From IMG/VR virus record IMGVR_UViG_2541047913_000007: a DNA stretch of 64,000 nt, one strand, 5' to 3'. This document shows, piece after piece, positions 9,373 through 39,995 of the stretch. The notes under the pieces are model-generated. The model did not search any database and was not told the DNA's origin. It saw nothing but the letters and a program-made list of their open reading frames with translations. Position numbers and translations under genes: made by a program. The DNA is from a virus (lineage: Duplodnaviria; Heunggongvirae; Uroviricota; Caudoviricetes). Each line of letters starts with the position of its first letter. Position 1 is the first letter of the stretch.

Positions 9373-9440
9373 ACTCACCTCATCTGATACCGAACTTTAC
9401 CCTCGAACATCCGGAAGAAATCCGGCATGAATATTGTTGG

Positions 9441-10651: not shown

Positions 10652-10692
10652 CTCACCAAACAACTAGTCACCAGTTAAGACACCGCAAAAAT

Positions 10693-12655: not shown

Positions 12656-12747
12656 CCCGCCAGCCATATTAACGCCATACCAACGGATTAAAAATGCCAG
12701 CAATGGCAGGAATTTGTTCATCCTTAAAATGGTTATGAGGTTTATCA

Positions 12748-15186: not shown

Positions 15187-15257
15187 TGTTCAACCGTCGT
15201 CGGTTGCAATTGGTATTCTGCAACCGGCGTTCATCTGATGTAAGAGATAAAGAATCG

Positions 15258-15509: not shown

Positions 15510-15528
15510 CTAAAAGCAACACGAACCA

Positions 15529-16824
15529 ATGAGAGAAGCTGAAATGAAATATCCGACAGGCGTGGAAAACCATGGAGGGAAATTACGTATCTGGTTTGTT
15601 TATAAAGGTGTAAGAGTCCGGGAAAATCTTGGGGTTCCTGACACAGCAAAAAACAGACGCATTGCAGGTGAGCTACGCGCCTCTGTTTGTTACGCAATAA
15701 AAACTGGCGCTTTCGACTATGCAAAACAGTTTCCCGCCTCACACAATCTGGAAAAATTTGGTGAGGCCCGACAAGATTTAACCATAAAAGAACTGGCTGA
15801 AAAATTTCTGGCACTGAAAGAAACTGAAGTCGCAAAAACGTCACTCAACACGTACCGTGCCGTCATCAAAAATATTCTGAGCATAATCGGTGAAAAAAAT
15901 CTTGCATCATCGATTAATAAAGAAAAATTGCTGGCAGTACGTAAAGAGTTACTGACTGGATACCAGATCCCCAAAAGTAACTATATTGTTACACAACCAG
16001 GGAGATCGGCTGTTACCGTAAATAATTACATGACAAATCTTTACGCCGTGTTCCAGTTTGGTGTTGATAACGGTTATCTGGCAGACAATCCATTTAAGGG
16101 GATCTCACCATTAAAGGAGTCGAGAACCATCCCGGATCCACTTTCGCGGGAGGAGTTTATCCGCCTTATTGACGCGTGCAGAAATCAGCAAGCCAAAAAT
16201 TTATGGTGTGTTTCCGTTTATACTGGGATTCGCCCTGGTGAACTCTGTGCGCTTGGATGGGAAGATATAGATCTGAAAAATGGAACAATGATAATCAGAA
16301 GAAATCTGGCAAAAGACCGTTTTACAGTACCAAAAACACAGGCGGGAACCAATCGTGTGATTCACCTTATTAAGCCCGCAATCGACGCTCTCCGGAGTCA
16401 GATGGCACTAACGAGACTGAGCAAAGAGCATATCATCGATGTTCACCTCAGAGAATTCGGCAGAACAGAGAAACAAAAATGTACCTTTGTTTTTCAACCT
16501 GAAGTGTCAGCGAAAGTAAAAAATTATGGTGACCATTTTACCGTTGACTCAATAAGGCAGATGTGGGACGCAGCGGTAAAGCGTGCCGGAATCCGCCATC
16601 GCAAATCGTATCAGTCGAGACACACTTATGCCTGCTGGTCGTTAACAGCAGGAGCTAACCCGGCATTCATTGCAAACCAGATGGGCCATGCAGATGCGCA
16701 AATGGTGTTTCAGGTGTACGGGAAATGGATGTCAGAAAATAATAATGCGCAGGTAACGCTGTTAAATACACAGTTAAGCGAGTTTGCCCCAACCATGCCC
16801 CATAACGAAGCAATGAAAAATTAA
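15529..16824 (+). CDS. int: Tyrosine site-specific integrase
   Basis: 431 aa; C-terminal RHTYACW and HAD...MVFQVYGKW catalytic-region motifs; terminal position next to host gene. Confidence 0.85.
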   Translation: MREAEMKYPTGVENHGGKLRIWFVYKGVRVRENLGVPDTAKNRRIAGELRASVCYAIKTGAFDYAKQFPASHNLEKFGEARQDLTIKELAEKFLALKETEVAKTSLNTYRAVIKNILSIIGEKNLASSINKEKLLAVRKELLTGYQIPKSNYIVTQPGRSAVTVNNYMTNLYAVFQFGVDNGYLADNPFKGISPLKESRTIPDPLSREEFIRLIDACRNQQAKNLWCVSVYTGIRPGELCALGWEDIDLKNGTMIIRRNLAKDRFTVPKTQAGTNRVIHLIKPAIDALRSQMALTRLSKEHIIDVHLREFGRTEKQKCTFVFQPEVSAKVKNYGDHFTVDSIRQMWDAAVKRAGIRHRKSYQSRHTYACWSLTAGANPAFIANQMGHADAQMVFQVYGKWMSENNNAQVTLLNTQLSEFAPTMPHNEAMKN

Positions 16825-17011
16825 TTTAATATTTATCAAATAGTTAACACGCATGACTCTTGAAATCCATAAATTCAAGCGCAGTGCCCAGCCATCCCGA
16901 TACTGCTGCTTTCACCAAATCCTTAGTGCTTCTTTCATGTTTTTCTATTGTCATAATGGTTATCTCTAAAAAAGAGGTAAGATGCGTACTACTTACTCGC
17001 CGTTATTGGTA
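16825..17011. other. Prophage 1 attachment junction (attR side) between int and rspB
   Basis: Intergenic AT-rich 187 bp between integrase stop and rspB stop. Confidence 0.4.
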
Positions 17012-22184: not shown

Positions 22185-24611
22185 ATGTCTAAAAATGACC
22201 GAATGGTGGGCATCAGCCGCAGAACACTCGTTAAATCAACCGCGATAGGTTCTCTGGCGCTGGCTGCAGGCGGTTTTTCTTTACCGTTCACCCTGCGCAG
22301 TGCAGCGGCAACGGTACAACAGGCCAGCGAAAAAGTGATCTGGGGTGCCTGTTCCGTCAACTGTGGTAGCCGCTGTGCACTTCGTCTACATGTTAAAGAT
22401 AATGAAGTGACCTGGGTGGAAACTGACAATACCGGCAGCGATGAGTACGGCAACCATCAGGTACGCGCCTGTTTGCGCGGTCGCTCCATCCGCCGGCGTA
22501 TTAATCATCCCGATCGCTTGAATTACCCAATGAAACGCGTGGGTACACGCGGTGAAGGCAAATTCGAACGGATTAGCTGGGATGAAGCCCTGGATACTAT
22601 CGCCAGTAGCCTGAAAAAAACCGTCGAACAATATGGCAATGAGGCTGTATATATTCAGTACTCTTCGGGGATTGTTGGCGGCAATATGACCCGCTCTTCG
22701 CCATCAGCCTCGGCGGTCAAACGCCTGATGAACTGCTACGGCGGTTCACTCAATCAGTATGGCTCCTACAGCACCGCGCAAATTTCCTGTGCCATGCCCT
22801 ACACCTACGGCAGTAATGATGGCAACAGCACCACGGATATTGAAAACAGCAAGCTGGTCGTGATGTTTGGTAACAACCCGGCAGAAACCCGCATGAGCGG
22901 CGGTGGCATCACTTATCTTCTTGAAAAAGCGCGCGAGAAATCGAACGCCAAAATGATTGTTATCGATCCGCGATATACCGATACGGCTGCTGGTCGTGAA
23001 GATGAATGGCTCCCTATTCGCCCGGGCACCGATGCCGCGCTGGTTGCGGGTATTGCCTGGGTATTGATTAACGAAAATCTCGTTGATCAACCTTTTCTCG
23101 ATAAATACTGCGTCGGCTATGACGAAAAAACCTTACCCGCAGATGCACCCAAAAATGGTCACTATAAAGCCTATATTCTTGGTGAAGGTGATGATAACAC
23201 AGCGAAAACGCCGCAGTGGGCTTCGCAAATTACCGGTATCCCGGTAGACCGTATCATCAAACTGGCGCGTGAAATTGGCACAGCAAAACCCGCTTATATC
23301 TGCCAGGGCTGGGGGCCGCAACGCCAGGCAAACGGCGAACTGACTGCACGCGCTATTGCTATGTTACCTATTTTGACGGGCAATGTCGGCATCAGCGGCG
23401 GAAATAGTGGCGCGCGTGAATCGACCTATACCATTACCATAGAACGCCTGCCGGTGCTGGATAATCCGGTCAAAACGTCAATCTCCTGCTTCAGCTGGAC
23501 AGATGCTATCGATCATGGTCCGCAAATGACGGCAATCCGCGACGGCGTCCGCGGCAAAGATAAACTGGATGTGCCCATTAAGTTCATCTGGAACTACGCG
23601 GGAAATACCCTCGTTAATCAGCATTCTGACATCAACAAAACGCATGAAATTCTGCAAGACGAATCGAAATGCGAAATGATTGTGGTCATCGAAAACTTTA
23701 TGACCTCATCGGCAAAATATGCCGACATTCTGCTGCCAGACCTGATGACCGTTGAGCAGGAAGATATTATTCCTAACGACTACGCCGGTAACATGGGATA
23801 TCTCATTTTCCTCCAGCCAGTCACCAGCGAAAAATTCGAACGTAAACCGATTTACTGGATCCTGAGTGAAGTCGCGAAACGTCTTGGACCTGACGTCTAT
23901 CAAAAGTTCACTGAAGGTCGCACGCAGGAACAATGGTTACAACATCTGTACGCCAAAATGCTTGCCAAAGATCCGGCGTTACCGTCTTACGACGAACTGA
24001 AAAAAATGGGTATCTATAAGCGTAAAGATCCCAATGGTCATTTTGTCGCCTACAAAGCATTTCGTGACGACCCCGAGGCAAATCCACTTAAAACACCTTC
24101 CGGTAAGATTGAAATTTATTCCAGCAAGCTGGCGGAAATTGCCCGTACCTGGGAACTGGAAAAAGATGAAGTGATAAGCCCACTGCCAGTTTATGCCTCT
24201 ACCTTTGAAGGCTGGGACTCCCCTGAACGTAGAACCTTCCCACTTCAACTGTTTGGTTTCCATTACAAATCCCGTACTCACTCGACCTACGGCAATATTG
24301 ATCTCCTGAAGGCTGCCTGCCGTCAGGAGGTGTGGATCAACCCTATAGATGCGCAGAAACGTGGGATTGCCAACGGCGATATGGTGCGGGTGTTTAACCA
24401 TCGTGGCGAAGTTCGGCTACCAGCCAAAGTGACACCACGCATTCTCCCTGGGGTTAGCGCTATGGGCCAGGGAGCCTGGCACGAGGCCAATATGTCTGGC
24501 GATAAAATCGACCATGGCGGCTGTGTGAATACGCTAACCACTCTGCGCCCTTCACCACTGGCGAAGGGAAACCCGCAGCACACTAATCTGGTCGAGATCG
24601 AAAAAATATAA
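22185..24611 (+). CDS. ynfE: Molybdopterin oxidoreductase YnfE (DMSO/selenate reductase family catalytic subunit, Tat signal)
   Basis: 808 aa; twin-arginine motif SRRTLVK; 4Fe-4S CSVNCGSRC. Confidence 0.9.
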   Translation: MSKNDRMVGISRRTLVKSTAIGSLALAAGGFSLPFTLRSAAATVQQASEKVIWGACSVNCGSRCALRLHVKDNEVTWVETDNTGSDEYGNHQVRACLRGRSIRRRINHPDRLNYPMKRVGTRGEGKFERISWDEALDTIASSLKKTVEQYGNEAVYIQYSSGIVGGNMTRSSPSASAVKRLMNCYGGSLNQYGSYSTAQISCAMPYTYGSNDGNSTTDIENSKLVVMFGNNPAETRMSGGGITYLLEKAREKSNAKMIVIDPRYTDTAAGREDEWLPIRPGTDAALVAGIAWVLINENLVDQPFLDKYCVGYDEKTLPADAPKNGHYKAYILGEGDDNTAKTPQWASQITGIPVDRIIKLAREIGTAKPAYICQGWGPQRQANGELTARAIAMLPILTGNVGISGGNSGARESTYTITIERLPVLDNPVKTSISCFSWTDAIDHGPQMTAIRDGVRGKDKLDVPIKFIWNYAGNTLVNQHSDINKTHEILQDESKCEMIVVIENFMTSSAKYADILLPDLMTVEQEDIIPNDYAGNMGYLIFLQPVTSEKFERKPIYWILSEVAKRLGPDVYQKFTEGRTQEQWLQHLYAKMLAKDPALPSYDELKKMGIYKRKDPNGHFVAYKAFRDDPEANPLKTPSGKIEIYSSKLAEIARTWELEKDEVISPLPVYASTFEGWDSPERRTFPLQLFGFHYKSRTHSTYGNIDLLKAACRQEVWINPIDAQKRGIANGDMVRVFNHRGEVRLPAKVTPRILPGVSAMGQGAWHEANMSGDKIDHGGCVNTLTTLRPSPLAKGNPQHTNLVEIEKI

Positions 24612-24668: not shown

Positions 24669-27095
24669 ATGATGAAAATCCATACCACAGAGGCGCTCAT
24701 GAAGGCTGAAATCAGCCGTAGAAGTCTGATGAAAACCTCCGCACTTGGCAGTCTTGCGCTGGCAAGCAGTGCTTTCACTCTGCCATTTTCTCAAATGGTC
24801 CGGGCGGCAGAGGCTCCGGTAGAAGAGAAAGCGGTCTGGAGTTCCTGCACCGTTAACTGCGGGAGCCGCTGTCTGTTACGTTTGCATGTGAAAGATGACA
24901 CCGTGTACTGGGTGGAGTCTGATACGACAGGTGACGACGTCTACGGTAATCATCAGGTTCGCGCGTGTTTACGCGGGCGCTCTATCCGCCGACGGATGAA
25001 TCATCCTGATAGGTTGAAATATCCCATGAAGCGCGTCGGCAAACGCGGTGAAGGTAAATTTGAATGGATAAGTTGGGACGAAGCCCTGGATACCATCAGT
25101 GATAATCTTCGGCGGATCCTAAAAGATTACGGCAATGAGGCTGTACATGTCCTGTACGGAACAGGCGTAGATGGCGGAAACATCACCAACTCAAACGTCC
25201 CGTACCGTCTGATGAACTCTTGCGGTGGTTTTCTCAGTCGCTATGGCAGCTACAGTACCGCACAGATCAGTGCCGCAATGAGTTATATGTTCGGTGCCAA
25301 TGATGGCAACAGCCCGGATGATATCGCCAATACGAAACTGGTCGTTATGTTCGGAAATAACCCGGCAGAAACGCGGATGAGCGGCGGTGGTGTCACTTAC
25401 TACGTCGAGCAAGCCCGCGAACGTTCAAACGCACGCATGATCGTCATCGATCCACGTTATAACGACACAGCTGCCGGGCGTGAAGATGAATGGCTGCCCA
25501 TTCGCCCAGGCACCGATGGCGCACTGGCCTGTGCGATTGCCTGGGTACTGATTACTGAAAACATGGTCGATCAGCCATTTCTCGACAAATATTGTGTTGG
25601 TTACGATGAAAAAACTCTGCCCGCCAACGCACCACGTAACGCGCATTATAAAGCCTATATTCTGGGCGAAGGGCCTGACGGCATAGCTAAAACGCCGGAA
25701 TGGGCAGCAAAAATCACCAGCATCCCGGCAGAAAAAATTATCCAGTTGGCACGAGAGATCGGTTCAGCAAAACCTGCTTATATTTGTCAGGGTTGGGGGC
25801 CACAACGACATTCCAACGGCGAGCAAACGTCCCGCGCTATTGCCATGCTTTCCGTTCTCACCGGTAACGTCGGCATAAACGGCGGCAACTCAGGTGTACG
25901 CGAAGGTAGCTGGGATCTGGGGGTAGAATGGTTCCCGATGCTTGAGAACCCTGTTAAAACGCAGATTTCCGTCTTTACATGGACAGATGCCATCGACCAT
26001 GGTAAGGAAATGACCGCGACCCGTGATGGTGTTCGTGGAAAAGAAAAACTGGATGTCCCCATCAAGTTTTTATGGTGCTACGCCAGTAACACATTGATCA
26101 ATCAACATGGCGACATCAATCACACCCATGAGGTGCTTCAGGATGACAGCAAGTGCGAGATGATTGTTGGCATTGACCACTTCATGACGGCCTCGGCTAA
26201 GTATTGCGATATCCTGTTGCCCGACCTGATGCCAACAGAGCAAGAAGACCTTATCTCTCATGAATCTGCAGGGAATATGGGCTATGTGATCCTCGCCCAA
26301 CCCGCAACCTCTGCAAAATTTGAACGCAAACCCATCTACTGGATGCTGAGTGAAGTCGCCAAACGCTTAGGACCAGACGTTTATCAAACCTTTACTGAAG
26401 GTCGCAGTCAGCATGAATGGATCAAATATCTCCATGCGAAAACGAAGGAACGTAACCCTGAGATGCCCGACTACGAGGAGATGAAAACGACCGGGATCTT
26501 TAAGAAAAAATGCCCGGAAGAACACTACGTCGCTTTCCGCGCATTCCGTGAAGATCCCCAGGCAAACCCGTTGAAAACACCTTCGGGGAAAATCGAAATT
26601 TATTCTGAACGACTGGCGAAGATTGCGGATACCTGGGAATTGAAAAAAGATGAAATTATTCATCCCCTTCCAGCTTATACGCCAGGTTTTGATGGCTGGG
26701 ACGATCCCCTGCGGAAAACCTATCCACTGCAGTTAACGGGCTTCCACTACAAGGCGCGTACCCACTCCAGCTACGGCAATATTGATGTGTTACAGCAGGC
26801 CTGCCCACAAGAGGTGTGGATCAACCCCATTGATGCTCAGGCTCGCGGTATCCGTCATGGCGATACCGTGCGGGTATTTAACAATAATGGAGAAATGCTG
26901 ATTGCCGCAAAAGTGACTCCGCGTATTCTGCCTGGCGTTACCGCCATCGGGCAAGGTGCGTGGCTTAAAGCGGATATGTTTGGTGACCGGGTCGATCACG
27001 GCGGCAGTATCAATATTCTGACCTCTCACCGCCCTTCACCGCTGGCAAAGGGAAACCCGTCGCACAGCAATCTTGTCCAGATCGAAAAGGTTTAA
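24669..27095 (+). CDS. ynfF: Molybdopterin oxidoreductase YnfF (paralogue of YnfE)
   Basis: 808 aa; Tat motif SRRSLMK; CTVNCGSRC. Confidence 0.9.
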   Translation: MMKIHTTEALMKAEISRRSLMKTSALGSLALASSAFTLPFSQMVRAAEAPVEEKAVWSSCTVNCGSRCLLRLHVKDDTVYWVESDTTGDDVYGNHQVRACLRGRSIRRRMNHPDRLKYPMKRVGKRGEGKFEWISWDEALDTISDNLRRILKDYGNEAVHVLYGTGVDGGNITNSNVPYRLMNSCGGFLSRYGSYSTAQISAAMSYMFGANDGNSPDDIANTKLVVMFGNNPAETRMSGGGVTYYVEQARERSNARMIVIDPRYNDTAAGREDEWLPIRPGTDGALACAIAWVLITENMVDQPFLDKYCVGYDEKTLPANAPRNAHYKAYILGEGPDGIAKTPEWAAKITSIPAEKIIQLAREIGSAKPAYICQGWGPQRHSNGEQTSRAIAMLSVLTGNVGINGGNSGVREGSWDLGVEWFPMLENPVKTQISVFTWTDAIDHGKEMTATRDGVRGKEKLDVPIKFLWCYASNTLINQHGDINHTHEVLQDDSKCEMIVGIDHFMTASAKYCDILLPDLMPTEQEDLISHESAGNMGYVILAQPATSAKFERKPIYWMLSEVAKRLGPDVYQTFTEGRSQHEWIKYLHAKTKERNPEMPDYEEMKTTGIFKKKCPEEHYVAFRAFREDPQANPLKTPSGKIEIYSERLAKIADTWELKKDEIIHPLPAYTPGFDGWDDPLRKTYPLQLTGFHYKARTHSSYGNIDVLQQACPQEVWINPIDAQARGIRHGDTVRVFNNNGEMLIAAKVTPRILPGVTAIGQGAWLKADMFGDRVDHGGSINILTSHRPSPLAKGNPSHSNLVQIEKV

Positions 27096-27105
27096 AGAGT
27101 AGCCC

Positions 27106-27219
27106 ATGACCACACAATATGGATTTTTTATCGATTCCAGCCGCTGTACTGGCTGTAAAACCTGCGAACTGGCGTGCAAAGATTTTAAAGTTGGTTACGT
27201 ATCGTTTAAAATCAATTAG
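27106..27219 (+). pseudogene. ynfG: ynfG truncated after ~27 codons by prophage 2 insertion (ferredoxin-type Fe-S subunit)
   Basis: MTTQYGFFIDSSRCTGCKTCELACKD then unrelated sequence and stop after 37 aa. Confidence 0.8.
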
Positions 27220-27269
27220 ATAGCCCGTCATTTCTGCGCTCACACGTCCCAACATTGAAAAACATGCAA

Positions 27270-27312
27270 AGCTTTGTAAGCCAATGCAAAGCTTTGTGTG
27301 TCTCACTTTTGT
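27270..27312. repeat. Direct repeat atgcaaagctttgt x2 near prophage 2 end (possible integrase arm-type sites)
   Basis: Two copies 22 bp apart about 90 bp inside the junction. Confidence 0.3.
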
Positions 27313-27634
27313 CCCAATACCAATCCGAATCCACCCTTTGTCATCATTGAGAAATGGCAAGGAAGAAAAGGATGTTACTGCACGATTTGACAAATCCGCC
27401 AGAGCTATCGCATACTGATCGCACTGAACAAATAAGCGGTCTCCGCACCCGATAGCTTTGCGGCTTTTTTATGCCTGCAATTTGGCATAGTTACATCCGT
27501 ACAAAGGTCGGGTGGAGAGGCGTAATACAACACCCGCAAGGGGAATATGCCCAGAGCTTCTTATTTGGCTCAGTTGACACCCGACCGCCAGCTACTAACT
27601 GGCGGTTATAAACTAAACAAATAAGGAGGTCATC

Positions 27635-27919
27635 ATGACCAGTCAACTCATCCCCGTATTCAACGGTTCTATCTCAAACCAAGCAGCCCTTCTATGCAAT
27701 GCTCGCAATCTACACGCTTTCCTTGGGGTTGGTAAACGCTTTGCATCGTGGATAACAGAACGTATTGCTGAATATGGTTTCGTTGAAAAACAGGACTATA
27801 TGATTGCTTCCCAAATTCGGGAAGCAAAAGGTAGAGGCGGTCACAACCGCAAGGAATACCACCTCACCCTCGACACAGCCAAAGAGCTTGCGATGGTTGA
27901 CGACTGCGTCCAATACTGA
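27635..27919 (+). CDS. AntA-domain antirepressor-like protein, short copy (94 aa)
   Basis: MTSQLIPVFNGS...EYHLTLDTAKELAMV; identical RBS ataaggaggtcatcATG as second copy. Confidence 0.6.
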   Translation: MTSQLIPVFNGSISNQAALLCNARNLHAFLGVGKRFASWITERIAEYGFVEKQDYMIASQIREAKGRGGHNRKEYHLTLDTAKELAMVDDCVQY

Positions 27920-28168
27920 CTATACTCCGCGCCGAGGCCTCGAAAACCTCCCAAAAGCGGATTAAACCAACCCCGTCAGTGTTGGATTTTTTATGCCTGT
28001 TATTCAGTGATAGCACAGTGTGCGGTCACATCCCCGATCAATGTCGGGAGGGCGACGAATACAACACCCGCAAGGGGAATAAGTCCGCGGTATCTTTTGG
28101 GCCGTTTCGAGCCTCCCGGCACCACATCTTGTGGTGGCATTTCTCGAAAAAAGCCAAAGGAGGTCATC

Positions 28169-28798
28169 ATGACCACTCAACTCATCCCTGTGTTTGAAGG
28201 TACAATCTCAAATGAACCTACGCTTCTGGTGAACGCGCGTGATTTGCATGGATTTTTAGAGGTAGGTAAAGATTTTTCTAACTGGATACGGGCCAGGCTA
28301 AACGAGTATGGATTCGTAGAAAATTTAGACTACATTCTATTTTCGCCAAATTTGGCGAAAACTCCAGGCCGCCGCCGCAAGGAATACCACCTCACCCTCG
28401 ACACAGCCAAAGAGCTTGCGATGGTTGAACGTAACGAAAAAGGTCGCCAGATCCGCCGCTACTTCATCGAGTGCGAAAAGAAACTTCGCAACATTCAGCC
28501 AGTACAAGCAGAACCACAGCCGCAATTCACAGCCGAGGAAATCATCCTCCTTTGCTACATGCAGCTCTGGATGGAAAAAGCCCAGGACCTCAGCAAACAC
28601 CTGTATCCCATCATGAAAGAGCTGAACTCCTCATACACGAACAAGCTGTATGACATTGCGTTTGAGACCATCTACATGGTGACGAAGAACAGAGATGCGT
28701 TACTGAGGGAAGTAACACGTCTCGACATGTCAAGTTCCGTTATCCAACGAGCCATGCCAATGCTGAAAAGCCTGCGGGCAAGGCAATTCGAATTCTGA
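28169..28798 (+). CDS. AntA/AntB-type antirepressor-like protein (209 aa)
   Basis: MTTQLIPVFEGTISNEPTLLVNARDLHGFLEVGKDFSNWI...KEYHLTLDTAKELAMVER. Confidence 0.65.
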   Translation: MTTQLIPVFEGTISNEPTLLVNARDLHGFLEVGKDFSNWIRARLNEYGFVENLDYILFSPNLAKTPGRRRKEYHLTLDTAKELAMVERNEKGRQIRRYFIECEKKLRNIQPVQAEPQPQFTAEEIILLCYMQLWMEKAQDLSKHLYPIMKELNSSYTNKLYDIAFETIYMVTKNRDALLREVTRLDMSSSVIQRAMPMLKSLRARQFEF

Positions 28799-28994: not shown

Positions 28995-30221
28995 ATGCCG
29001 GTAACTATAACAAAAATCAGAACTGGAGAAGATGTTTTGTCAGCAGCCATTCACCGCATTGAATGGTTGTTTGAAACATTCTCTTCTGTATGTTTATCTT
29101 TTTCTGGCGGTAAAGATTCCACTGTACTTTTCCATCTTGTAGCCGAAGTGGCCTACAGGAAGAAACGTCGTTTTTCTGTATTGTTCATTGACTGGGAAGC
29201 CCAGTATCAATGCACCATTGATCATATACAGAAGATGCGGATGATGTACCAAGATGTAACAGATACCTTTTACTGGGTTGCACTTCCCCTGACGACAGTA
29301 AATGGTGTCTCGCAGTTTCAGCCTGAGTGGATATGCTGGGAGCCCGGTGTAGAGTGGGTTCGACAGCCACCGGAAGATGCTATTACTGATATGGCGTATT
29401 TCCCCTTTTACCGCTACGCCATGACTTTTGAAGAATTTGTCCCAGCTTTTTCTTCCTGGTTCGCAAGTAACCAATGTAGCGTGGCAATACTGACTGGAGT
29501 CCGCGCGGATGAATCTCTTAACAGATTTATGGGACTGGTTTCCCAACGAAAACTGAGATATGCAGATGATAAACCCTGGACCACGGCGTCACCTGAAGGT
29601 TTTTACTACACCATGTATCCGCTGTATGACTGGAAAACCAACGATATCTGGGTATATAACGCTAAAACCTGTGCAATCTACAATCCTCTGTATGATTTGA
29701 TGTACCGTGCAGGCATTCCTCTACGTAATATGCGTGTCTGTGAGCCTTTTGGCCCGGAACAGCGTAAGGGACTATGGCTTTATCATGTTCTGGAGCCAGA
29801 AACTTGGGCACGGATGTGTGAACGAGTATCTGGTGCTGCCAGTGGGGCTCTTTATGCCAATGAAAGCGGGGCCTATTTTGCCCTGCGTAAACGGATGTCA
29901 AAACCATCCCATCATACCTGGCGCAGCTATGCGTTCTTCCTGCTGGACGTAATGCCGGAAAGAACGGCTGAACACTACCGCAACAAGATAGCAGTTTACC
30001 TGCGCTGGTATCAGAACCGGGGATTCCCGGATGATATCCCGGATGAACAGGAAAATGATCTGGGCTGCCGGGATGTTCCCTCCTGGCGACGTATTTGTAA
30101 GACTCTCATAAAGAATGATTTCTGGTGCCGAACGCTCTCCTTCAGCCCCAACAAACCCCGGCACTATGAACGTTACCTGCAGCGTATGAATGAAAGGAGG
30201 AAGGAATGGGGAATTCTGTGA
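28995..30221 (+). CDS. ibrA: IbrA-like PP-loop ATP pyrophosphatase (PAPS reductase family with C-terminal extension)
   Basis: 408 aa; PP-loop SFSGGKDS near N-terminus. Confidence 0.65.
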   Translation: MPVTITKIRTGEDVLSAAIHRIEWLFETFSSVCLSFSGGKDSTVLFHLVAEVAYRKKRRFSVLFIDWEAQYQCTIDHIQKMRMMYQDVTDTFYWVALPLTTVNGVSQFQPEWICWEPGVEWVRQPPEDAITDMAYFPFYRYAMTFEEFVPAFSSWFASNQCSVAILTGVRADESLNRFMGLVSQRKLRYADDKPWTTASPEGFYYTMYPLYDWKTNDIWVYNAKTCAIYNPLYDLMYRAGIPLRNMRVCEPFGPEQRKGLWLYHVLEPETWARMCERVSGAASGALYANESGAYFALRKRMSKPSHHTWRSYAFFLLDVMPERTAEHYRNKIAVYLRWYQNRGFPDDIPDEQENDLGCRDVPSWRRICKTLIKNDFWCRTLSFSPNKPRHYERYLQRMNERRKEWGIL

Positions 30222-30850
30222 CACCAGAGGTGGAGGTGCTGAGCAAGATGATTCGACAGTACTTCAGTCAGGAACAATCTGAAGAGAAAACCATACAGGC
30301 CCTGAACCATCTCCGCTGCGTACTCCATGAGATCAGCCCCTTTGCTCAAGAACCAGTGGACTGTGTGCTGTGGGTAAAAGCGGATGAAATTGTCGCTAAC
30401 GATTATAATCCCAATGTCATGGCCCCAAGCGAAAAAAAATTACTGAAACAATCTCTGGAAAAAGACGGTTTTACTCAACCAATTGTTGTTTCGGAAGAAA
30501 CAAGCCATTACCTGGTGGTGGATGGTTTTCATAGGCAGTTACTAGGTAGAAGAACAGTTACTGGAAAACGCCTGAAAGGCTGGCTACCAGTAACCTGTAT
30601 TAATCCAGACCGAAAGGGACAAACCTCACGTATTGCCGCGACTATCCGACATAACAGAGCCAGGGGGAAACACCAGATAACCTCAATGTCTGATATTGTC
30701 AGAGATCTTTCACGTCTTGGCTGGACTGATGAACGTATCGGAACAGAACTGGGGATGGACCAGGATGAAGTTCTGAGGTTAAAGCAGATTAGCGGGCTAA
30801 CGGAGTTATTTCAGCAGGCAGATTTCAGCCCTGCATGGACTGTTACATAA
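30206..30850 (+). CDS. ibrB: IbrB-like ParB/sulfiredoxin-fold nuclease-domain protein
   Basis: 214 aa; ANDYNPN and VVDGFHR ParB-N-like motifs; 16-nt overlap with ibrA-like. Confidence 0.65.
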   Translation: MGNSVTPEVEVLSKMIRQYFSQEQSEEKTIQALNHLRCVLHEISPFAQEPVDCVLWVKADEIVANDYNPNVMAPSEKKLLKQSLEKDGFTQPIVVSEETSHYLVVDGFHRQLLGRRTVTGKRLKGWLPVTCINPDRKGQTSRIAATIRHNRARGKHQITSMSDIVRDLSRLGWTDERIGTELGMDQDEVLRLKQISGLTELFQQADFSPAWTVT

Positions 30851-30938: not shown

Positions 30939-31463
30939 CTACCTCAGATCACCTAATAATATATCAAGATTATTTTGCGCATTAATGCTATTCGCCATTA
31001 CTGTTGCTGCTTCTGGCAACTTTCCAAGAGCAATAAATATATTCTTAAGGCTGATTGGAATTGATGAACCATGCGGATCGCGCCACTCACCGCAAATTCT
31101 GTGAGTTTCATCACAAAGCCTGAACGCATCCCAACCTCCATATTGACCAAAAATTATGTCCATTGACTCTATTTCTGCGGGCGATAACTCCCCCAGCTCA
31201 TCAACAGAAGAAAATGTACGCCACATTTCAACCTTATGATCCGCTACATCAGATATCCATGATTCCCACGGACTGTACTCGTTTTCACTTCCATCCTTAA
31301 CCAAAGAATATGTCTGCGATAAAACGGGTCCTTTGTTCATAGAGAAATAATGATCACCACTAATGGGAAAACCATACAACTCCATTGCTTTGCGGTCAGA
31401 GAGATACATCAGCTTAATGAAACGCATAGATCCGCCATGTTTTTTCAGCAAATACGCTGCCAT
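30939..31463 (-). CDS. Panacea (DUF4065, SocA-like) domain protein
   Basis: 174 aa; N-terminal MAAYLLKKHGGSMRFIKLMYLSDR typical of DUF4065. Confidence 0.55.
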   Translation of the reverse strand: MAAYLLKKHGGSMRFIKLMYLSDRKAMELYGFPISGDHYFSMNKGPVLSQTYSLVKDGSENEYSPWESWISDVADHKVEMWRTFSSVDELGELSPAEIESMDIIFGQYGGWDAFRLCDETHRICGEWRDPHGSSIPISLKNIFIALGKLPEAATVMANSINAQNNLDILLGDLR

Positions 31464-31613: not shown

Positions 31614-34600
31614 TTAATCCACTCCCACTTTTTTGTTGTACTCGCGGTTAAAGCGATCCACGGCAACCTTCATATCCCGCTCTACCGATTTCACCATCGC
31701 CGCCTGCTGCGCCAGACTGAGAGAACTGTCGGCATAAATGGCATCGCGCTGTTTGCGCAAATCCTTCAGTCTCTTCCGGGTATCCTGCATAAGCCCGTTC
31801 ATCAACAATTTTCCGTTGTTCTCGTCAATGAACGCCGTTCTTTCTGCACCGGTCAGACTCTTCAGCTCTGCGTGATACTGCGCAACCTCTGTCATCCGGT
31901 CGTACATCTTCTGCTGGTCTGCATACGGCATCACCTCACCCGAAATTTTCCCCAGGAAGGGCACCTGCTGCTCCGGTATATCAATACCGTTCAGCGATTT
32001 CACCGCCGCATCTGTGGTTTTGGAAATGAAGCGCCCTGTCCCTCCGGAGATATAGTCAATCCAGAATTTCAGCGATTCCGGTGTGATATCCACCGCGCCG
32101 GGACGATACTGGCTGCCACCTGAGAACGCATTCAGCCAGGATGCAAACGCCTTGTACGCCTCAGGCGTTGAACGTCTGCCCAGTTGGCTGTCCGGTTTCG
32201 GTGTGCCAAATGGCATGTTCTCCTGGTAAATCTGCGCCCCCATGAAGTTTTCATTCATGGCAAGGTTCGCAAACGGACGCAGAATGGTCGGCGCTGCATT
32301 TTTCAGCAATGCCCCGGACAGTGTTTCCGACGTTTCACTGCCCACAGGACTGAATGCCCCCAGGATACCACCGACAACATTACCGGCAGCACGTGAAGCA
32401 GTCAGGTCGCCCGCTGCCACACCTTCAGCAGTATGCCCGAGCAGGAAGAAAACGTTGTACCCGTAAGGCAGAGGAATACTCCAGTACTCTCCGGCCTTGC
32501 CCCCGAACACCGATTTCATAATGACGAGGTTACGCTCTTTCACATGAGACGGCACCTTGTCATACCAGTTAACCCCGTCATCATCCTCCCCCGCAACACT
32601 GCGGTTAAGCGAGCCAAGCAGATAACCCGCTCCCACAGCTGCAAGCGCGATTTTCTGCGGTACATTGAGATTCTTCCAGCGAAGGCGCTCCGGTAACGGC
32701 CCGTCGCCATTAAGATGTCCGAGCGTTCTCACCAGGTTTGCGGTCCCCTGAATGCTGGCGTTGGCAAACATATACAGCGAGTTCATCAGCGCTCCCTGCT
32801 CACCACGACGGTTAAAGTTCACCGTCATGTTTTTGGCAAGAGATGCCGCCTGCTGGCGTGACAAACCGGCATCACGGGCGTGTTTATAGGCAGAAAGACG
32901 CAGAGCGTTTTCAACCGCGCCGTTGGCATCCTCGACCAGGTTCAGGAACGAATGCCATGCACCGATACTCTGGCCTTTCCATCCTCCCTTCGCCAGCGAT
33001 ACAAGGCGATCCATTTCCTTCTGCTGGCCTTCAAGGTCACCCATGTTAAACCAGCCGGTTTTACCTCCATCCTCAACAAACTCTTTCCACACCTTCTGCC
33101 ACTGCGCACCGTTGCCCGTGAGGGTTTTACCACGCAGACTGGCGTATACGGCAGACATGGCAGACCGGCTGTCTTTCACCACAGCCAGGGCGGATAAGTT
33201 ATCCAGCCCTTTCAGTTTACCGTCGCTCCTTCCCTGCTCAGCCTTCAGGTTCATCACCGCCGTCTGCACGTCACGGATGAAGTTACTGACCAGAAATTCC
33301 GGGTTATACGACGTGTTCACCGTTGCCAGGAAACGGTTAACTTTCCCCAGCGTACGGATTACGGCGTTACTGGTTTCCGGCCCCATGTTCTTCATCGCAC
33401 GCATCAGGCGCGGGTCATGGAGTTTGATGTAGTAAGTTTTGCCGTCCTTTTTGGTGGTGAAGTAGCGATCCGCCATCATTGCCATAGGCACCGGACGTTC
33501 AACAACTTCGCGACGGGTTTCGCCGGTTTCCGGATCAACACGCTCTGCAATCGCCCGCATGGTGTCCGGTTTGTCATCAGTGAATACCTGCCAGTAATCC
33601 TTATCGGGATTATCCTGCACCAGTTTCAGGAAGGCGTTACCCACTTCGTTTTTGCGATTGCGGATCAGCGATTCGCTCAAATCCTGTATCGCCTGAGTGG
33701 AAGGAGACTGTGCGCGGGATGCACGCCCCATGGCCTGCCTGCTTTCACGTCCGCCGATGGTGAAGCCCTTACCTGTACGGGGCAGTGACACCACACCGTC
33801 AACATCCTGACCTTTCAGGGGAACGTAGTAACGGTAGGCGTTCTGCCAGGCATCCACCACACCGCTCTCTTCCAGTCCGGCCTCACGGATAAGCTCACGG
33901 CGACGGGCCAGCATATCGTCAACAATCCCTGCCAGACGGTCATACTGTGCCTGTTTGCCACTGTTACGCACACGCTGCATGATTTCCGCCGCTTCCGCGT
34001 TGGTCATCCCCGAACCGCCGTCCGGCATTTTCGGGTTGATTTTCGCGATATGCGCGTTACGTTCCGGCGCGTGACGGGCGTAGAGGTACTCATCCAGATC
34101 GGCCTGCGCAATTTTGTAGTCCGCCAGTAATTTAGCCAGTGGCTGAACGTAGCGCTCCTTCATCACGTTCAGGTCGTTTTCCGCCTTCCCGTGGAAGAGT
34201 TCTTCCGCCATATAAGCGTTGTTACTGTCGTCTATTTTTCCGCCAGTTTTACGGATATTCTCCTGAACAGCTTTCAGCACCTGGAATTTATCCTGCATCT
34301 GGCGCACAAAACGCGATGCAATTGTCTCTTCCGGTGTCAGACTGCTGGTACGGGAGTAATACGGCCCCTTGCGAATATCTTCAGGATAGAGTATTTTATC
34401 TACAGAGCCGCGATAAGAACGCTCCTCTTTGGGCAATTGGAGCCCACTGTACTGAGGGTTATCGCGGCTTAATTTCTCCTTCCGGTAAAGCGTTAATCCA
34501 GCCATTTCCATACTTTTCAGCTTTTTCCCGTTTTCCGTACCGTAAACAGATGCCACCTTGTTAATTTCCAGACGTTTATCTGTCGCCTTCATATGCACTG

Positions 34601-37600
34601 CCGAGACGACCGGATCACCATTTTTATCCACAGCATCAAGCAGCATCACAACCGCATTTCTTTCTGTCGCGGAACGGTAAATTGCATCCGGATTGTGCAT
34701 CAGTTCCGGAAGTCTCTCGATAACATCCATTGGCACCACATGTTTCACGCCATTGGTAGCCTTCCGCACAGTGTCGCGGGAGATAACCAGCGGCAAATCT
34801 GGTGCGCCAAGGTGGCGCAATACCGGCGGCGTACGCCCGATGTTTGCAGTCATTGCACCAGAACGTAACGACTTCATCATTCTGGCAAGGTCATCACGAT
34901 AACGCTCGCCCTCACCTTCCGGCACTTTGAACGGATCAGGCTTACCGCTACGGGAGTACTGAGACGATGCGCCAGCGCCATCCTCACGCGGCGTGTAACC
35001 TTCCCGCACACGCTGGCCTAACGTGCGAATAGTTTCGCGAACAAGTCTGATATCGTTCAGCTCTGTCGGCTTCAGTAACCCCGTGCGACGCAGTACCCCT
35101 TTGACCAGGGCAACAACACGCTCCCACGCCGCCACAAATTTATTCGGCTGTTTCTCCGCCATATGTGCCAGAAATTCACCTGCCTGCACTTCCGGTGATT
35201 CCTTACCATAAGACGCATCAACCTTACGCCAGGCGTCACGGATGGTGGCGTTATCACTGTCACGGGTTTTCAGTACGGTCTTAATAATCGTCTGATATTC
35301 CGCTGGCGTGACTACATGCTCCATTGCATGGTGAATAATCTCGTGACGTAACTTCTCGCGAACGGTCCGCCCGTCAGGGATGTTATCCGCCACCAGGACA
35401 ATTTCACGTTTATCCGGACGATAGAACGCATGCACCCTGCCGTAACCGTCGAACGATTCACCCGCCAGCGCTTCAGCCTCTTTCTGTGACTTCACCACGC
35501 GGACCTTCAGGTCACTGTCCTTAATGCCACTCATCACGCCACGGGCAACCGCTTCAACCTGCGGGACCGGGCTGCCTTTGGCTTCCGCACTGCGGTTAAC
35601 ATCCGAAATGAGATTGCCTTCAGGTGTGCGGGTCACGCCCTTACGGGAATAAAACGCAACGCCCTTGTCCGTCTCACGGGTTTTCAGCGTACTGAACAGG
35701 TGATCGAATGCATCACGAATACCGCCATCCAGTTCCGCATTCGTCGGATAAGCCCAGGTGTTATCTGTGTTGTGCTCAGGTGCCTTACGGATATTGACCA
35801 GATAATCATTCTCCACGCCAGCCGTACGCGCTTTATCCTGAACATAACGCTCAAAGGCACGCGCCGCCATTTCAACATCCGTTGACCAGTACGGTTTTGA
35901 GCGCACCTCATCGAGAAGCGCTGAACGACGCGGCATGTCACTGCTGTTGATCGCTTTCATCACGCCTTTAAACGCGTCGTAAACCTCCTGACGTACCGGA
36001 TATTCCGCATCAACATATCTGCCGTCTTTAAATACGCGCCCGGCACGCTGTGCTTCCGTCATATAGTCGCCACCTGACGTGATCTTCCCGTCAGTGGAAA
36101 CATCATAACGACCAAAATAATTATCCAGTGAATGGAACCATTCGTGGGCCAGCGCCCCCGGTCCGTTACCTTTTGTCAGGTTGATTGCCACCTCACCCGG
36201 CTCATAGTGTGCCGCCGCCTTACCCTTACCACGGGCACCAAAAGCAAGCCCAAGACGACCGTTCAGAGAAAGCGCTTTTGTCGGCACGTTCAGCACATCA
36301 GCCAGGTCATGCAGCGAGTCATAAGCCCGGTTCAAATCAGCCTGACGACGCGGACCTTCCACATAATTACCAAACTGCACACCACGAAAACCAAACGCAT
36401 CACTGAACTGCTCCGGCGAAACATCCCCCTTGCGGCGTTCTGGTCCGGTACGATCGCGGTTGGTGGCGTTACGCTGCTCCTCACGCGAAATCTCCCGCAT
36501 CTCCTTCACATGACGAACAAGCTCATCACGATGTGAATCAATGTACTTACGCGCATCACTGGCTGACTTAAAGCCACCTCTCACCCGCATTTTGTTTTTG
36601 CCGTAAGCGATAAAAATATCGCCACTACGGGTATTCCGGTAAACGTCAAAGCTGATTTTGTCATCTGGTGACGGTGCTGTTTTTTCATCACCTTTCGCCC
36701 GTGACTTTTCCTCCTGCTCTGCAAACCAGGCTTTCGCCTTTGTCAGTAATTCATCCCTGCTTTCCGAGAAAAAGAGGTTACTCCCCTTATTGTCCTTATT
36801 GCGCAGTGAATAAAGTTTCTGTGGCGGATCGTAACGCTTCCCTCCGGCCGCCTGATACACACCGGATACCACCCGATAAGCAGAAGCCTTGTCCATCTGT
36901 GAAGGTGGCAGCGTGCGTAACAGTTGCCAGGTATCCGCATAACGGGAAGGCATTCTTCCCTCCATCCACTCAGCAAGCCGTCCGGCAGTCACTTTTCCTT
37001 CCAGCATTCCCGCCACGCTTGTGCGGATGCTCTTTACACTCTCCACCCACTTCACCGCATTGAGTTTCGTTTTCGCGGGAATATCACTGCGGTACAGCGC
37101 AATCATTGCCAGTGTGTCAGCGTCGGCCCCTTCGTTCGCCAGTTTTGCATAGTCCGGTTTCGGGAACACTTTGCTCAGCGGCTGCGTGAAATAATCCCTG
37201 TCTTCCAGCGTTTTACCCAGTGTTTCGGCAAGCTGTGCATAACGGTGTTTTGCCGCGCCCTTAATCTCCTCACCAAAGTCTTCAATTTTTGCACCACGCG
37301 CCTGCTGGTGAGTGCTCGGTTTATCTACCGGCACCGGCACCGGCACCGGCACCGGCACCTCAGTATCCGGAACATCGGTTATGGTCTGGCGATTATCCCC
37401 GGTCTGTCTGCGCGCTTCTGCCTGCTGTGCCAGTTCCGGAAGGGAGTCACGAACCATACGAGGGAGTGATTCAGGATGTGGCATATCAACCCCACGCTGT
37501 TCAGGTGCAGGAAGTCCTTCACGCACTGGTGCTGTGGCGTTCTGCTCATCCGGTGATGGCAGACCACGACGAACCGGTTCGCCCTCCAGTATTTCCCCCT

Positions 37601-39995
37601 GGCGACCAGCGGCATTTTCCGGTGCCTGCGCACGTCCTTTCTGGAAACTCTGGCCCTTCACCTCACCGGTTGTGGTAAAACGACCACCACGTCCGGCCTG
37701 ATTTTCATCCGGCGTACGCGCCACTTCTCCTGGTAACGGATATCCCTGTCCGGGATGAATATCGCCGGGAGCGGGAAGGCGTGGACGCTCAGTTAACTCC
37801 TGTGCTGTCGGACCGGCATCACCTTCAGCCATCTGTGAACGTACAAGCTCCTCTGCCGTCGGCGCGTTGCCACGGGCAAGGCGGGCCTGCACTTCTGTAT
37901 CATCCCCCGTGAAACCACGGAATCGCGGGTCACGCATGAACGCGGGCTGCTCCATCGGTTCAGCATCAGCAATACGCTCTCCGTCAGCCAGGGTGTTAAT
38001 GGTCTCCGTTGCCACATCTTCAGAGAACGCAGGATTATCCATTTCAACGGCATACTGATTCTCGCCTTTCTTCACTACGGACGGTTTCAGGCCGGTGGCG
38101 CTGGCATTGCGGAAAACGTCGCTCCCCAGAGCACTTTTTTCATCCGTGAAATAACGGTTGTCCGGACGCACCTTTTCAATGCGTTCTGCTGGTCTGGACG
38201 CACCACTCCCGTTAATTTCAATACGAACTTCATCCGGATCGCGGAACCGCACCGTCGGGTAAATACTCCCGTCGCCATCATCCGCATTTTCCGGCTGTGG
38301 CTGTGCCTCCGGTCTGGCCTCCTGCTGAGGGCGAAGCACATCACGGATAGCCTGTAACTGCTGCTCTTCAGTATCAGTACGCCCTTCCTTCAGGCTGAGT
38401 TTTCGGTATTCCTCAAGCAGTTCAGGGCGCGGCTTCGCCTTCAGCTCATCCATCACCGCCTGTCGCTTCGCCTGTTCATCCAGTTCATTTAACAGCTGGC
38501 TGGCGGCTTCCCGGCGATGAACGGCAGACGTGTCTCCCTCAGGTGCCATATCCGCATCAGCATACTGTTCCAGAAGTTGCTCGCGATTCATGCCCTGCAT
38601 GGATTCGCGATGCTGTGCCACCGGATCAGCCGGTTCGGGTTGCGGGGCTGCTTCACCCTGCTGTACGACTTCAGCCTCACGCATGGCGGTTTCTTCTGCG
38701 GCCTGACGTTTTCCACGATATCCGGCAACCGCACCGAACGGTGCGCCCATCGCTGCACCAAGAGCGGCTCCTTCGATCGTTGCGTCAGCTACCCCCTCCC
38801 ATGGTGATATATCCATTCCGGCAGTCTCACGCAACGTCATATTTTCCTGGTAACGCGAATAGCCGCCCTGCGCCGCATTAATCGTCCCCTGTTCCGTGGC
38901 ATTTCTGACAATGCCGCTTTTAACGGTCTTCGCCGTGCCCCGCATCGCCAGATTAAACAACTGAGCATCGCCCAGTTTTGCCGCCATGGCATTCACAGCC
39001 AGCAATTCAGGATCGGTTGCCAGCTGCGCGCGCACCTCATCGGCAACACGCTCTTTTGCCAGATCCATTTTCTGGCGATCAGTAAGCTGTGCGTGCTGCG
39101 GATCTGCATCAATTGACAAAAACGTCTGCTGAAATTTCGGGGACTTCGCCAGCTCAGAGTAATCCGCGTTAAGAACAGAGTCTGCTGCTGCCATTGCACT
39201 CTGCCCCTGTGCGCTGGCTGAGGAATGGGTGATCAGGCCTGCCTGGAATAAATCCGGCATTTTTTTATCGACAGCTTCTGCTGCCAGTGCGGTAGCTCTT
39301 TCCGGCTGCATCCCTGCCGCAATGTATTTTTTCTCCAGCCCGGCGGTCAGCACTTTTCGCAGAGTGACTTCACCCAGCTTTTTAGTCACACCGCCTGCAA
39401 CCATATCAGGTACAAGGGCACCAATCAGGTTTACGCCCTTCGCCACCCAGACCGCAGAATCATCATATCCTTCAGTCATCGGTGTATTCAGCGCCCGCTG
39501 CGCCCCCGGCGACATCTTGCCAGTCAGCCATTCATCCGAGGCTTTAGCGCCGCCACTGACTGCCTTGCCTGTGACCTTCAGACCTTTACCGACAGTATCA
39601 GTAACCGCATTTTTTCCATCAGGCAGAGTGTCGATGACCTCATCCGCCCCCTTGCTGCCACCGACAAAAATATCCTGAACAGTTGCGACTCCCGGCAGCC
39701 CCATACGGCTGAACTCATTTAAAATACGCGCCCCTGTTTTTACCGGGTTCTGAATCATCGCATCACCGAGTCCACGGGCCATTTCCCCTGCCCCCCGGAC
39801 GGACTGGGCGACACCTTTCCCCATAGTTGGCAATACATCGCCCAGGCTGAACGACGTGCTGTTGTCCTTCCAGCGATTGGGATCGGAGAAAAACGCATCA
39901 TAGCTGTCAGTCTCGCCCGGCTGCTGAATGTTCAGGCTGTTGCGGTTCTGGTTGCCAAATTGCGCTTCAGGGCGCTGTTCATCGGAATAAGCCAT
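31614..39995 (-). CDS. Giant 2793-aa virion-associated/polyvalent-type protein with two HExxH zincin-like motifs and acidic Pro-rich linkers
   Basis: Single uninterrupted ORF; ALAHEWFHSLDNYFG and LRHEIIHHAMEHV; PVPVPVPVPV tract. Confidence 0.75.
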   Translation of the reverse strand: MAYSDEQRPEAQFGNQNRNSLNIQQPGETDSYDAFFSDPNRWKDNSTSFSLGDVLPTMGKGVAQSVRGAGEMARGLGDAMIQNPVKTGARILNEFSRMGLPGVATVQDIFVGGSKGADEVIDTLPDGKNAVTDTVGKGLKVTGKAVSGGAKASDEWLTGKMSPGAQRALNTPMTEGYDDSAVWVAKGVNLIGALVPDMVAGGVTKKLGEVTLRKVLTAGLEKKYIAAGMQPERATALAAEAVDKKMPDLFQAGLITHSSASAQGQSAMAAADSVLNADYSELAKSPKFQQTFLSIDADPQHAQLTDRQKMDLAKERVADEVRAQLATDPELLAVNAMAAKLGDAQLFNLAMRGTAKTVKSGIVRNATEQGTINAAQGGYSRYQENMTLRETAGMDISPWEGVADATIEGAALGAAMGAPFGAVAGYRGKRQAAEETAMREAEVVQQGEAAPQPEPADPVAQHRESMQGMNREQLLEQYADADMAPEGDTSAVHRREAASQLLNELDEQAKRQAVMDELKAKPRPELLEEYRKLSLKEGRTDTEEQQLQAIRDVLRPQQEARPEAQPQPENADDGDGSIYPTVRFRDPDEVRIEINGSGASRPAERIEKVRPDNRYFTDEKSALGSDVFRNASATGLKPSVVKKGENQYAVEMDNPAFSEDVATETINTLADGERIADAEPMEQPAFMRDPRFRGFTGDDTEVQARLARGNAPTAEELVRSQMAEGDAGPTAQELTERPRLPAPGDIHPGQGYPLPGEVARTPDENQAGRGGRFTTTGEVKGQSFQKGRAQAPENAAGRQGEILEGEPVRRGLPSPDEQNATAPVREGLPAPEQRGVDMPHPESLPRMVRDSLPELAQQAEARRQTGDNRQTITDVPDTEVPVPVPVPVPVDKPSTHQQARGAKIEDFGEEIKGAAKHRYAQLAETLGKTLEDRDYFTQPLSKVFPKPDYAKLANEGADADTLAMIALYRSDIPAKTKLNAVKWVESVKSIRTSVAGMLEGKVTAGRLAEWMEGRMPSRYADTWQLLRTLPPSQMDKASAYRVVSGVYQAAGGKRYDPPQKLYSLRNKDNKGSNLFFSESRDELLTKAKAWFAEQEEKSRAKGDEKTAPSPDDKISFDVYRNTRSGDIFIAYGKNKMRVRGGFKSASDARKYIDSHRDELVRHVKEMREISREEQRNATNRDRTGPERRKGDVSPEQFSDAFGFRGVQFGNYVEGPRRQADLNRAYDSLHDLADVLNVPTKALSLNGRLGLAFGARGKGKAAAHYEPGEVAINLTKGNGPGALAHEWFHSLDNYFGRYDVSTDGKITSGGDYMTEAQRAGRVFKDGRYVDAEYPVRQEVYDAFKGVMKAINSSDMPRRSALLDEVRSKPYWSTDVEMAARAFERYVQDKARTAGVENDYLVNIRKAPEHNTDNTWAYPTNAELDGGIRDAFDHLFSTLKTRETDKGVAFYSRKGVTRTPEGNLISDVNRSAEAKGSPVPQVEAVARGVMSGIKDSDLKVRVVKSQKEAEALAGESFDGYGRVHAFYRPDKREIVLVADNIPDGRTVREKLRHEIIHHAMEHVVTPAEYQTIIKTVLKTRDSDNATIRDAWRKVDASYGKESPEVQAGEFLAHMAEKQPNKFVAAWERVVALVKGVLRRTGLLKPTELNDIRLVRETIRTLGQRVREGYTPREDGAGASSQYSRSGKPDPFKVPEGEGERYRDDLARMMKSLRSGAMTANIGRTPPVLRHLGAPDLPLVISRDTVRKATNGVKHVVPMDVIERLPELMHNPDAIYRSATERNAVVMLLDAVDKNGDPVVSAVHMKATDKRLEINKVASVYGTENGKKLKSMEMAGLTLYRKEKLSRDNPQYSGLQLPKEERSYRGSVDKILYPEDIRKGPYYSRTSSLTPEETIASRFVRQMQDKFQVLKAVQENIRKTGGKIDDSNNAYMAEELFHGKAENDLNVMKERYVQPLAKLLADYKIAQADLDEYLYARHAPERNAHIAKINPKMPDGGSGMTNAEAAEIMQRVRNSGKQAQYDRLAGIVDDMLARRRELIREAGLEESGVVDAWQNAYRYYVPLKGQDVDGVVSLPRTGKGFTIGGRESRQAMGRASRAQSPSTQAIQDLSESLIRNRKNEVGNAFLKLVQDNPDKDYWQVFTDDKPDTMRAIAERVDPETGETRREVVERPVPMAMMADRYFTTKKDGKTYYIKLHDPRLMRAMKNMGPETSNAVIRTLGKVNRFLATVNTSYNPEFLVSNFIRDVQTAVMNLKAEQGRSDGKLKGLDNLSALAVVKDSRSAMSAVYASLRGKTLTGNGAQWQKVWKEFVEDGGKTGWFNMGDLEGQQKEMDRLVSLAKGGWKGQSIGAWHSFLNLVEDANGAVENALRLSAYKHARDAGLSRQQAASLAKNMTVNFNRRGEQGALMNSLYMFANASIQGTANLVRTLGHLNGDGPLPERLRWKNLNVPQKIALAAVGAGYLLGSLNRSVAGEDDDGVNWYDKVPSHVKERNLVIMKSVFGGKAGEYWSIPLPYGYNVFFLLGHTAEGVAAGDLTASRAAGNVVGGILGAFSPVGSETSETLSGALLKNAAPTILRPFANLAMNENFMGAQIYQENMPFGTPKPDSQLGRRSTPEAYKAFASWLNAFSGGSQYRPGAVDITPESLKFWIDYISGGTGRFISKTTDAAVKSLNGIDIPEQQVPFLGKISGEVMPYADQQKMYDRMTEVAQYHAELKSLTGAERTAFIDENNGKLLMNGLMQDTRKRLKDLRKQRDAIYADSSLSLAQQAAMVKSVERDMKVAVDRFNREYNKKVGVD
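37327..37356. repeat. Hexanucleotide tandem repeat (ACCGGC)x5 inside giant gene, encodes (PV)5
   Basis: accggcaccggcaccggcaccggcaccggc. Confidence 0.8.

Follow-up and report, generated by a model that had tools for sequence, protein, structure and literature searches.

A prophage of the POCJ13/75-02 group in ynfG, a documented phage landing site

Within the 64,000-nucleotide stretch of DNA analysed here, which we call the window, the ynfEFGH-dmsD operon reads as far as the beginning of ynfG and then gives way to phage genes. This raises the question of whether a prophage has split ynfG at a specific site, and whether the other prophage end makes the gene whole again. We conclude, with a probability of about 0.93, that a temperate lambdoid phage of the POCJ13/75-02/PhiR5_2 group integrated site-specifically into ynfG, splitting and inactivating the gene. 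The phage would be of the short-tailed 933W/Stx-phage type, and its tyrosine integrase would have exchanged strands within the sequence TTTAAAG in ynfG codons 27-29. The window would then hold the int-distal junction (ynfE-ynfF-ynfG(1-85)/phage), and the int-proximal junction (int-52 bp-ynfG(79-618)-ynfH-dmsD) would be expected about 24-26 kb past the window end. The phage would bring no substitute for the 5′ end of ynfG, so that integration would leave a 28-residue stub with cysteine group I and a promoter-less, start-less remainder with groups II-IV. YnfG would thus be lost for as long as the prophage stays in place, and the gene would become whole again on precise excision. The far junction and the integrase lie beyond the window end (64000) and were read in two proxy genomes, DETEC-S792 and UPEC-245U, the best matches among 5,426 complete E. 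coli genomes.

The int-distal junction was read directly in the window. The first gene of the interrupted operon, ynfE (22185-24611, + strand), is an intact open reading frame (ORF) of 808 amino acids in the ORF list, and its position agrees with that of the annotated ynfE in UPEC-245U and K-12. It is followed by ynfF (24669-27095, +), also intact in the ORF list with 808 amino acids counted from the first ATG; annotated ynfF homologues begin one codon after this ATG. The start of ynfG lies 10 bp past the ynfF stop. In an alignment to the uninterrupted gene, nucleotides 1-85 of K-12 ynfG (NC_000913.3) were 100% identical, from the ATG onwards, to window positions 27106-27190 (+), which corresponds to codons 1-28 and the first base of codon 29. 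At 27191 the similarity drops abruptly from complete identity to none. The ORF list and its translation show a 37-codon ORF at 27106-27219 (+), reading MTTQYGFFIDSSRCTGCKTCELACKDFKVGYVSFKIN and then a stop, which consists of 28 YnfG residues, the last being F27-K28, and the nine residues VGYVSFKIN. This nine-residue tail is an accidental read-through into phage DNA. The only cysteines of the four-cluster set found on the 37-residue product are those of group I (C14, C17, C20 and C24), which form the first CxxCxxCxxxC cluster motif, and a tblastn search of the whole 64 kb window with full-length YnfG returned the N-terminal stub as its sole match, with no 3′ part of the gene. The same 5′ fragment is annotated in the proxy genomes as an incomplete '4Fe-4S binding protein' pseudogene.

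These results bear on an earlier note on this DNA, made from the sequence alone, which had placed a prophage inside ynfG and described the gene as diverging into phage DNA with a stop after 37 codons. The insertion is borne out by the switch in the alignment at 27191 and the 36.8 kb of phage genes that follow, and the position and description of the 37-codon ORF are correct. The host-derived residues that the note had quoted are real but fall two short, as the alignment extends to F27-K28. The comparison with an uninterrupted ynfG that it had proposed revealed no intact ynfG across the junction and allowed the attachment core to be defined.

To locate this core we compared four sequences: the bacterial attachment site (attB) of K-12, the window junction, the far junction of DETEC-S792 and UPEC-245U, and the deduced phage attachment site (attP). 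The four share nothing but the 7-bp sequence TTTAAAG, at 27184-27190 in the window, which occupies ynfG codons 27-29. The window junction is the int-distal one, equivalent to lambda attR. The deduced attP reads ...AGCAACAACTTTAAAGTTGGTTACG... and contains a perfect 14-bp palindrome, CAACTTTAAAGTTG, which is how two inverted core-type integrase sites flanking an overlap would be expected to appear. No single record in the phage collection spans a contiguous attP (int side, core and window side). All five matching phage records are in prophage-linear form and broken at the core, with those of POCJ13 and 75/02 ending exactly at TTTAAAG, and attP was therefore deduced rather than observed. The organisation resembles that of lambda in having a tyrosine integrase, a 7-bp identity between attP and attB, inverted core-type repeats and an int gene adjoining the attachment site. 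Unlike lambda attB, which lies between gal and bio, the target here is inside a coding sequence. An alternative target class was ruled out, as ARAGORN predicted no tRNA in the window that could have served for tRNA-targeted integration.

The DNA next to the core carries a signature of its own. The first 100-108 bp past the core are 99% identical to POCJ13 and 75/02, and the attachment arm next to the core is that of the POCJ13/75-02/PhiR5_2 group. Within the phage collection, the 196-bp int-distal arm (27191-27386) matches only POCJ13 and the 75/02 Stx phage, both from its first base, and PhiR5_2, from base 17. Among the matches listed, other 933W-like Stx phages (PA52, PA36, Stx2 II and other PA phages) match only from 27387, and these phages use other integrases. 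As the match of these phages begins only at 27387, the arm at 27191-27386 belongs to the integration module specific for ynfG. It contains a 17-bp hairpin (27262-27301, +; ΔG −22.7 kcal/mol, z −4.3) formed by two direct copies of ATGCAAAGCTTTGT and located 72 nt past the core and, in the circular phage, about 125 nt downstream of the int stop. In the proxies, the int-proximal arm has a single copy of ATGCAAAG as well. The hairpin is a candidate arm-type or accessory-protein binding site, terminator or sib/tI-like element. Lambda likewise has sib/tI just past att on the int-distal arm, a resemblance in position only, and an Rfam search of the junction gave the hairpin only a sub-threshold chance match (mir-19). 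A putative terminator at 27443-27470 was dropped, as it folds no better than shuffled sequences (z −1.1). Scans of both junctions for consensus promoters and terminators stayed at or near the shuffle expectation and were given no weight; terminator-like sites at the far junction were about twice as frequent as in shuffles, and the only one between int and ynfH falls in sequence native to ynfG.

The visible part of the prophage (27191-64000, 36.8 kb) runs off the window in the lysis region, and its early half and the other junction lie beyond. Pfam searches identified two AntA-type antirepressor ORFs, a truncated first one (27635-27919) and a full-length one ending at 28798, as well as an IbrA-like PAPS-reductase/DUF3440 protein and a Panacea-domain protein. 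The truncated first antA is also found in relatives. Annotation of near-identical genomes adds an IbrB-like protein, for which no Pfam family was matched, and Hok, Lom, tail fibre, N4-gp56-type major capsid, portal, terminase and lysis genes. The 933W-type module is thus represented by the polyvalent protein, Lom, tail fibre, N4-gp56-type capsid, portal and terminase.

Several features of this region were observed alongside. Two matches to the Rfam family sRNA-Xcc1 (RF02221), at 27506-27594 (+, 69.1 bits) and 28043-28128 (+, 73.4 bits), both score above the gathering threshold. The first directly precedes, on the 5′ side, the truncated AntA-domain antirepressor ORF and the second the full-length one, and they look like a conserved leader element of ant genes. 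The IbrA-like gene (28995-30221, +) overlaps the IbrB-like gene (30206-30850, +), and a convergent gene at 30939-31463 (−) encodes the Panacea-domain (SocA-like antitoxin) protein, with no obvious toxin partner. The IbrA/IbrB-like and Panacea genes are accessory cargo at the prophage end. A single ORF of 2793 amino acids (31614-39995, −) contains LPD5, LPD1, MuF_C and LPD38 domains, and we take it to be the 'large polyvalent protein' typical of 933W-like phages. A tail-fibre stretch at 52221-52698 aligns neither with DETEC-S792 nor with PhiR5_2 and is a local mosaic replacement in host-range genes. The DETEC-S792 prophage contains an IS200C element (35501-36207 of its locus, corresponding to window position ~58275) that is absent from the window, and this insertion is the one structural difference between the two. 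At its other end, the window includes a second lambdoid prophage (1-16900) that adjoins rspB at the position of Qin in K-12. Its predicted genes include int (15529-16824), xis (15186-15509) and an exonuclease gene (12748-15186), and its RNA elements include DicF (12043-12094), sok (5626-5800), two copies of STnc100 (1772-1981 and 2259-2464) and the 'anti-stx2' sRNA AsxR (1716-1768).

A search with window positions 27191-52000 (24.8 kb) matched 237 phage records in all. The closest isolated phage is PhiR5_2 (PV340546.1), with 97.0% identity over 95% of the query, the same gene order as in the window and no stx. It differs from the window's prophage in that its deposited record is of a free phage and gives K-12 MG1655 as the host. 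Our literature search for PhiR5_2 returned no paper describing it, and hence no documented integration site from that source. POCJ13, the 75/02 Stx phage and many 933W-like Stx phages were 90.6-91.4% identical over 72-74% of the same query. POCJ13 (phiPOC-J13; KJ603229 / NC_025434) has the same attachment point as the window's prophage and a 933W-like late and accessory region (74% covered at about 91%), but it carries stx1a and has a mosaic genome, the identity of about 91% being interrupted by gaps. The 75/02 Stx phage (KF766125) and the Stx1a prophage of RM10410 have both been reported in ynfG; they differ from the window's prophage in encoding Stx1a and are about 91% identical to it in shared modules. 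The slot in which stx would be found, between the Q antiterminator and the nanS-p/lysis genes, lies beyond the window. In DETEC-S792 this slot contained no stx-sized ORF and no tRNA, and in UPEC-245U it contained no stx-sized ORF.

The insertion in the window lies at the same nucleotide position of ynfG, with the core TTTAAAG, as those of POCJ13 and 75/02, and the site has been described before. Gray et al. (2014) located phiPOC-J13 in S. flexneri S1742 by genome sequencing and junction PCR; new lysogens carried it in S1742 of strain 2457T and in ynfG of E. coli MG1655, and integration was concluded to be site-specific (PMC4193171). The S. sonnei phage 75/02 also uses the S1742/ynfG site (PMC5447701), and Carter et al. 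(2023) reported a 62.5 kb Stx1a prophage within ynfG of E. coli O113:H4 strain RM10410 (PMC10562709). We found the window's junction in 55 of the 5,426 complete E. coli genomes, including the RM10410 chromosome. A K-12 probe spanning the site matched at 5,409 places in 5,326 records, which puts the number of genomes where it is split in two at about 83. Separately, the K-12 ynfF-ynfG probe was covered for less than 80% in about 640 E. coli genomes, the cause being unrelated to the prophage. In the rows that we sampled from these genomes, the match usually started at probe base 224 and the upstream gene was a generic molybdopterin oxidoreductase, which suggests that a variant or recombinant 3′ end of ynfF is common. 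We conclude that ynfG is a documented landing site of the POCJ13/75-02 phage family, that the window's prophage is one more member, and that this is already known. The observation is confirmed and its interpretation supported, the mechanism being ordinary integration by a known integrase into a known target.

We next turned to the far prophage end, as seen in the two proxies. DETEC-S792 is 99.2% identical to the window over positions 15001-40000, and UPEC-245U is 99.8% identical over a 1-kb junction query. Against window positions 27000-64000, DETEC-S792 is colinear at 98.3-99.4% identity except for about 0.5 kb in the tail-fibre stretch noted above. From core to core, the prophage measures 61,246 bp in DETEC-S792 and 62,955 bp in UPEC-245U. 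In both genomes a 387-residue tyrosine integrase (WP_001387389.1) is encoded at the prophage end, co-directional with the ynf operon, and is 100% identical to that of PhiR5_2 and 99.7% identical to those of POCJ13 and the 75/02 Stx phage. After int, both genomes continue with 52 bp, the remaining 540 nt of ynfG, ynfH and dmsD. By analogy, the far-end ynfG piece of the window's own genome is predicted to start as TTTAAAGATCTTGGCCC... (ynfG nt 79-618).

A less orderly history would be that the prophage has decayed to a remnant that can no longer excise, its int end having been deleted or rearranged, in which case ynfG would be permanently destroyed. The far end does lie beyond the window and the first antA copy is truncated. 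Decay also occurs in this lineage, since the closest genome carries both IS200C and an internal stop in ynfF (1935-4358 of the DETEC-S792 locus), a stop that is absent from ynfF of the window. Against this, the structural genes visible in the window are without exception full-length ORFs, colinear with those of the isolated and plaque-forming PhiR5_2, the truncated antA is shared with relatives, and int and the far junction are intact in both proxies. By extrapolation from these relatives the window's prophage would be complete, and we consider a remnant unlikely.

Far less probable still is that the other prophage end rebuilds a functional ynfG and the insertion is silent, as with phages that bring a duplicate gene end into tRNA genes or icd. 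Integration at a gene end that is restored in the process is common among integrases, and the two attachment arms here are partly similar, with 12 of 16 bases shared between the phage sequence AGCAACAACTTTAAAG and the host sequence TGCAAAGATTTTAAAG. But this insertion lies near the 5′ end of the gene, and the phage would have to bring a promoter, a ribosome-binding site, a start codon and the whole of cysteine group I. Read in the ynfG frame, the far junction of both proxies is TAG-AAT-GAG-TTA-AGC-TCA-CGC-TTT-CAA-GTG-GTG-AGC-AAC-AAC-TTT-AAA-GAT (NELSSRFQVVSNN-FKD...). On the phage side this frame contains a TAG 13 codons before the core and neither an ATG nor a cysteine, and in these two genomes the phage-derived sequence fails to complete the gene. 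From F27 on, the far fragment is exactly residues 27-205 of K-12 YnfG, so that cysteine groups II-IV sit on a piece with no start. PGAP calls both ynfG pieces of the proxies pseudogenes and flags the far one as missing its N-terminus. Translation could conceivably begin at a GTG-GTG pair located five to six codons upstream of the far core, but the N-terminally shortened YnfG that resulted would have no cysteine group I. Sixteen cysteines, every one of them a ligand, bind the four [4Fe-4S] clusters of DmsB-type ferredoxins. With group I split from groups II-IV, neither piece of ynfG can function.

The reading of the junction as ordinary allelic variation or an assembly chimera has in its favour only that a single junction is visible in the window, and it is barely credible given the abrupt change at 27191 from 100% to no similarity, the 36.8 kb of phage genes beyond it, and the recurrence of the identical junction, both in 55 independently finished genomes and in lysogens that published work has verified by PCR.

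Site-specific integration that splits ynfG thus remains our preferred reading, and the gene is not reconstituted, as extrapolated to the window's genome from its relatives. The earlier note had suggested inspecting the other prophage end and had made disruption of the Fe-S subunit conditional on that end not rebuilding ynfG; examined by proxy, the end in the two closest genomes offers neither an ATG nor the four N-terminal cysteines, and no rebuilding has taken place in them. Its further claim that ynfH and dmsD would be cut off from their promoter agrees with the proxies, in which these genes lie 61-63 kb from the ynfE promoter.

What does the insertion mean for ynf/dms physiology? Loss of the electron-transfer subunit should abolish the YnfEFGH selenate reductase, and operon-driven transcription of ynfH and dmsD is probably reduced. 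DmsD is required for the maturation of DmsABC and for selenate reduction (PMC12096835; PMC12724226), and for this reason the polar effect could reach beyond the ynf enzyme. An in-vitro genomic-SELEX peak of a minor sigma factor has been reported inside ynfG, downstream of the core (PMC5493296). The polar effect may therefore be incomplete, as this site and the co-directional upstream int could feed transcription of ynfH and dmsD. The literature searched gave nothing decisive on a dmsD-specific promoter, the SELEX peak being the sole hint, and we found no data there on ynfH/dmsD expression or on the cost of lysogeny after ynfG insertion.

Gene order and orientation allow for a more elaborate role, in which the insertion is more than a knock-out, either through anaerobic modulation of induction or as a reversible switch of DMSO respiration; we regard either as distinctly doubtful. 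Transcripts of ynfEF now head toward the co-directional antirepressor genes (27635-28798). In the first version, the FNR-activated ynfE promoter would read through ynfEF and the stub into these antirepressors, so that prophage induction could respond to anaerobic conditions in the gut, provided that the hairpin at 27262-27301 does not act as a terminator. In the second, the 61-63 kb insertion would starve dmsD, which encodes a Tat chaperone essential for DmsABC, of operon transcription, and lysogeny would impair DMSO/S-oxide respiration until excision reversed it. For active lysogeny, the insertion has the prerequisite of being precise, reversible and within a coding gene; condition-dependent excision that restores the gene without lysis is putative.

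Current understanding of this phage family is unchanged by the locus, and its residual value lies in annotation and in a possible physiological cost to dmsD and selenate reduction. The annotation of this genome should show ynfG as a pseudogene split by a prophage and should place that prophage in the POCJ13/75-02 integration group. Stx1a-converting phages of Shigella and E. coli belong to this group, so that the state of the ynfG site, occupied or free, matters for tracking the acquisition of Stx phages. Lysogens are predicted to lose YnfEFGH-dependent selenate reduction and may under-express DmsD.
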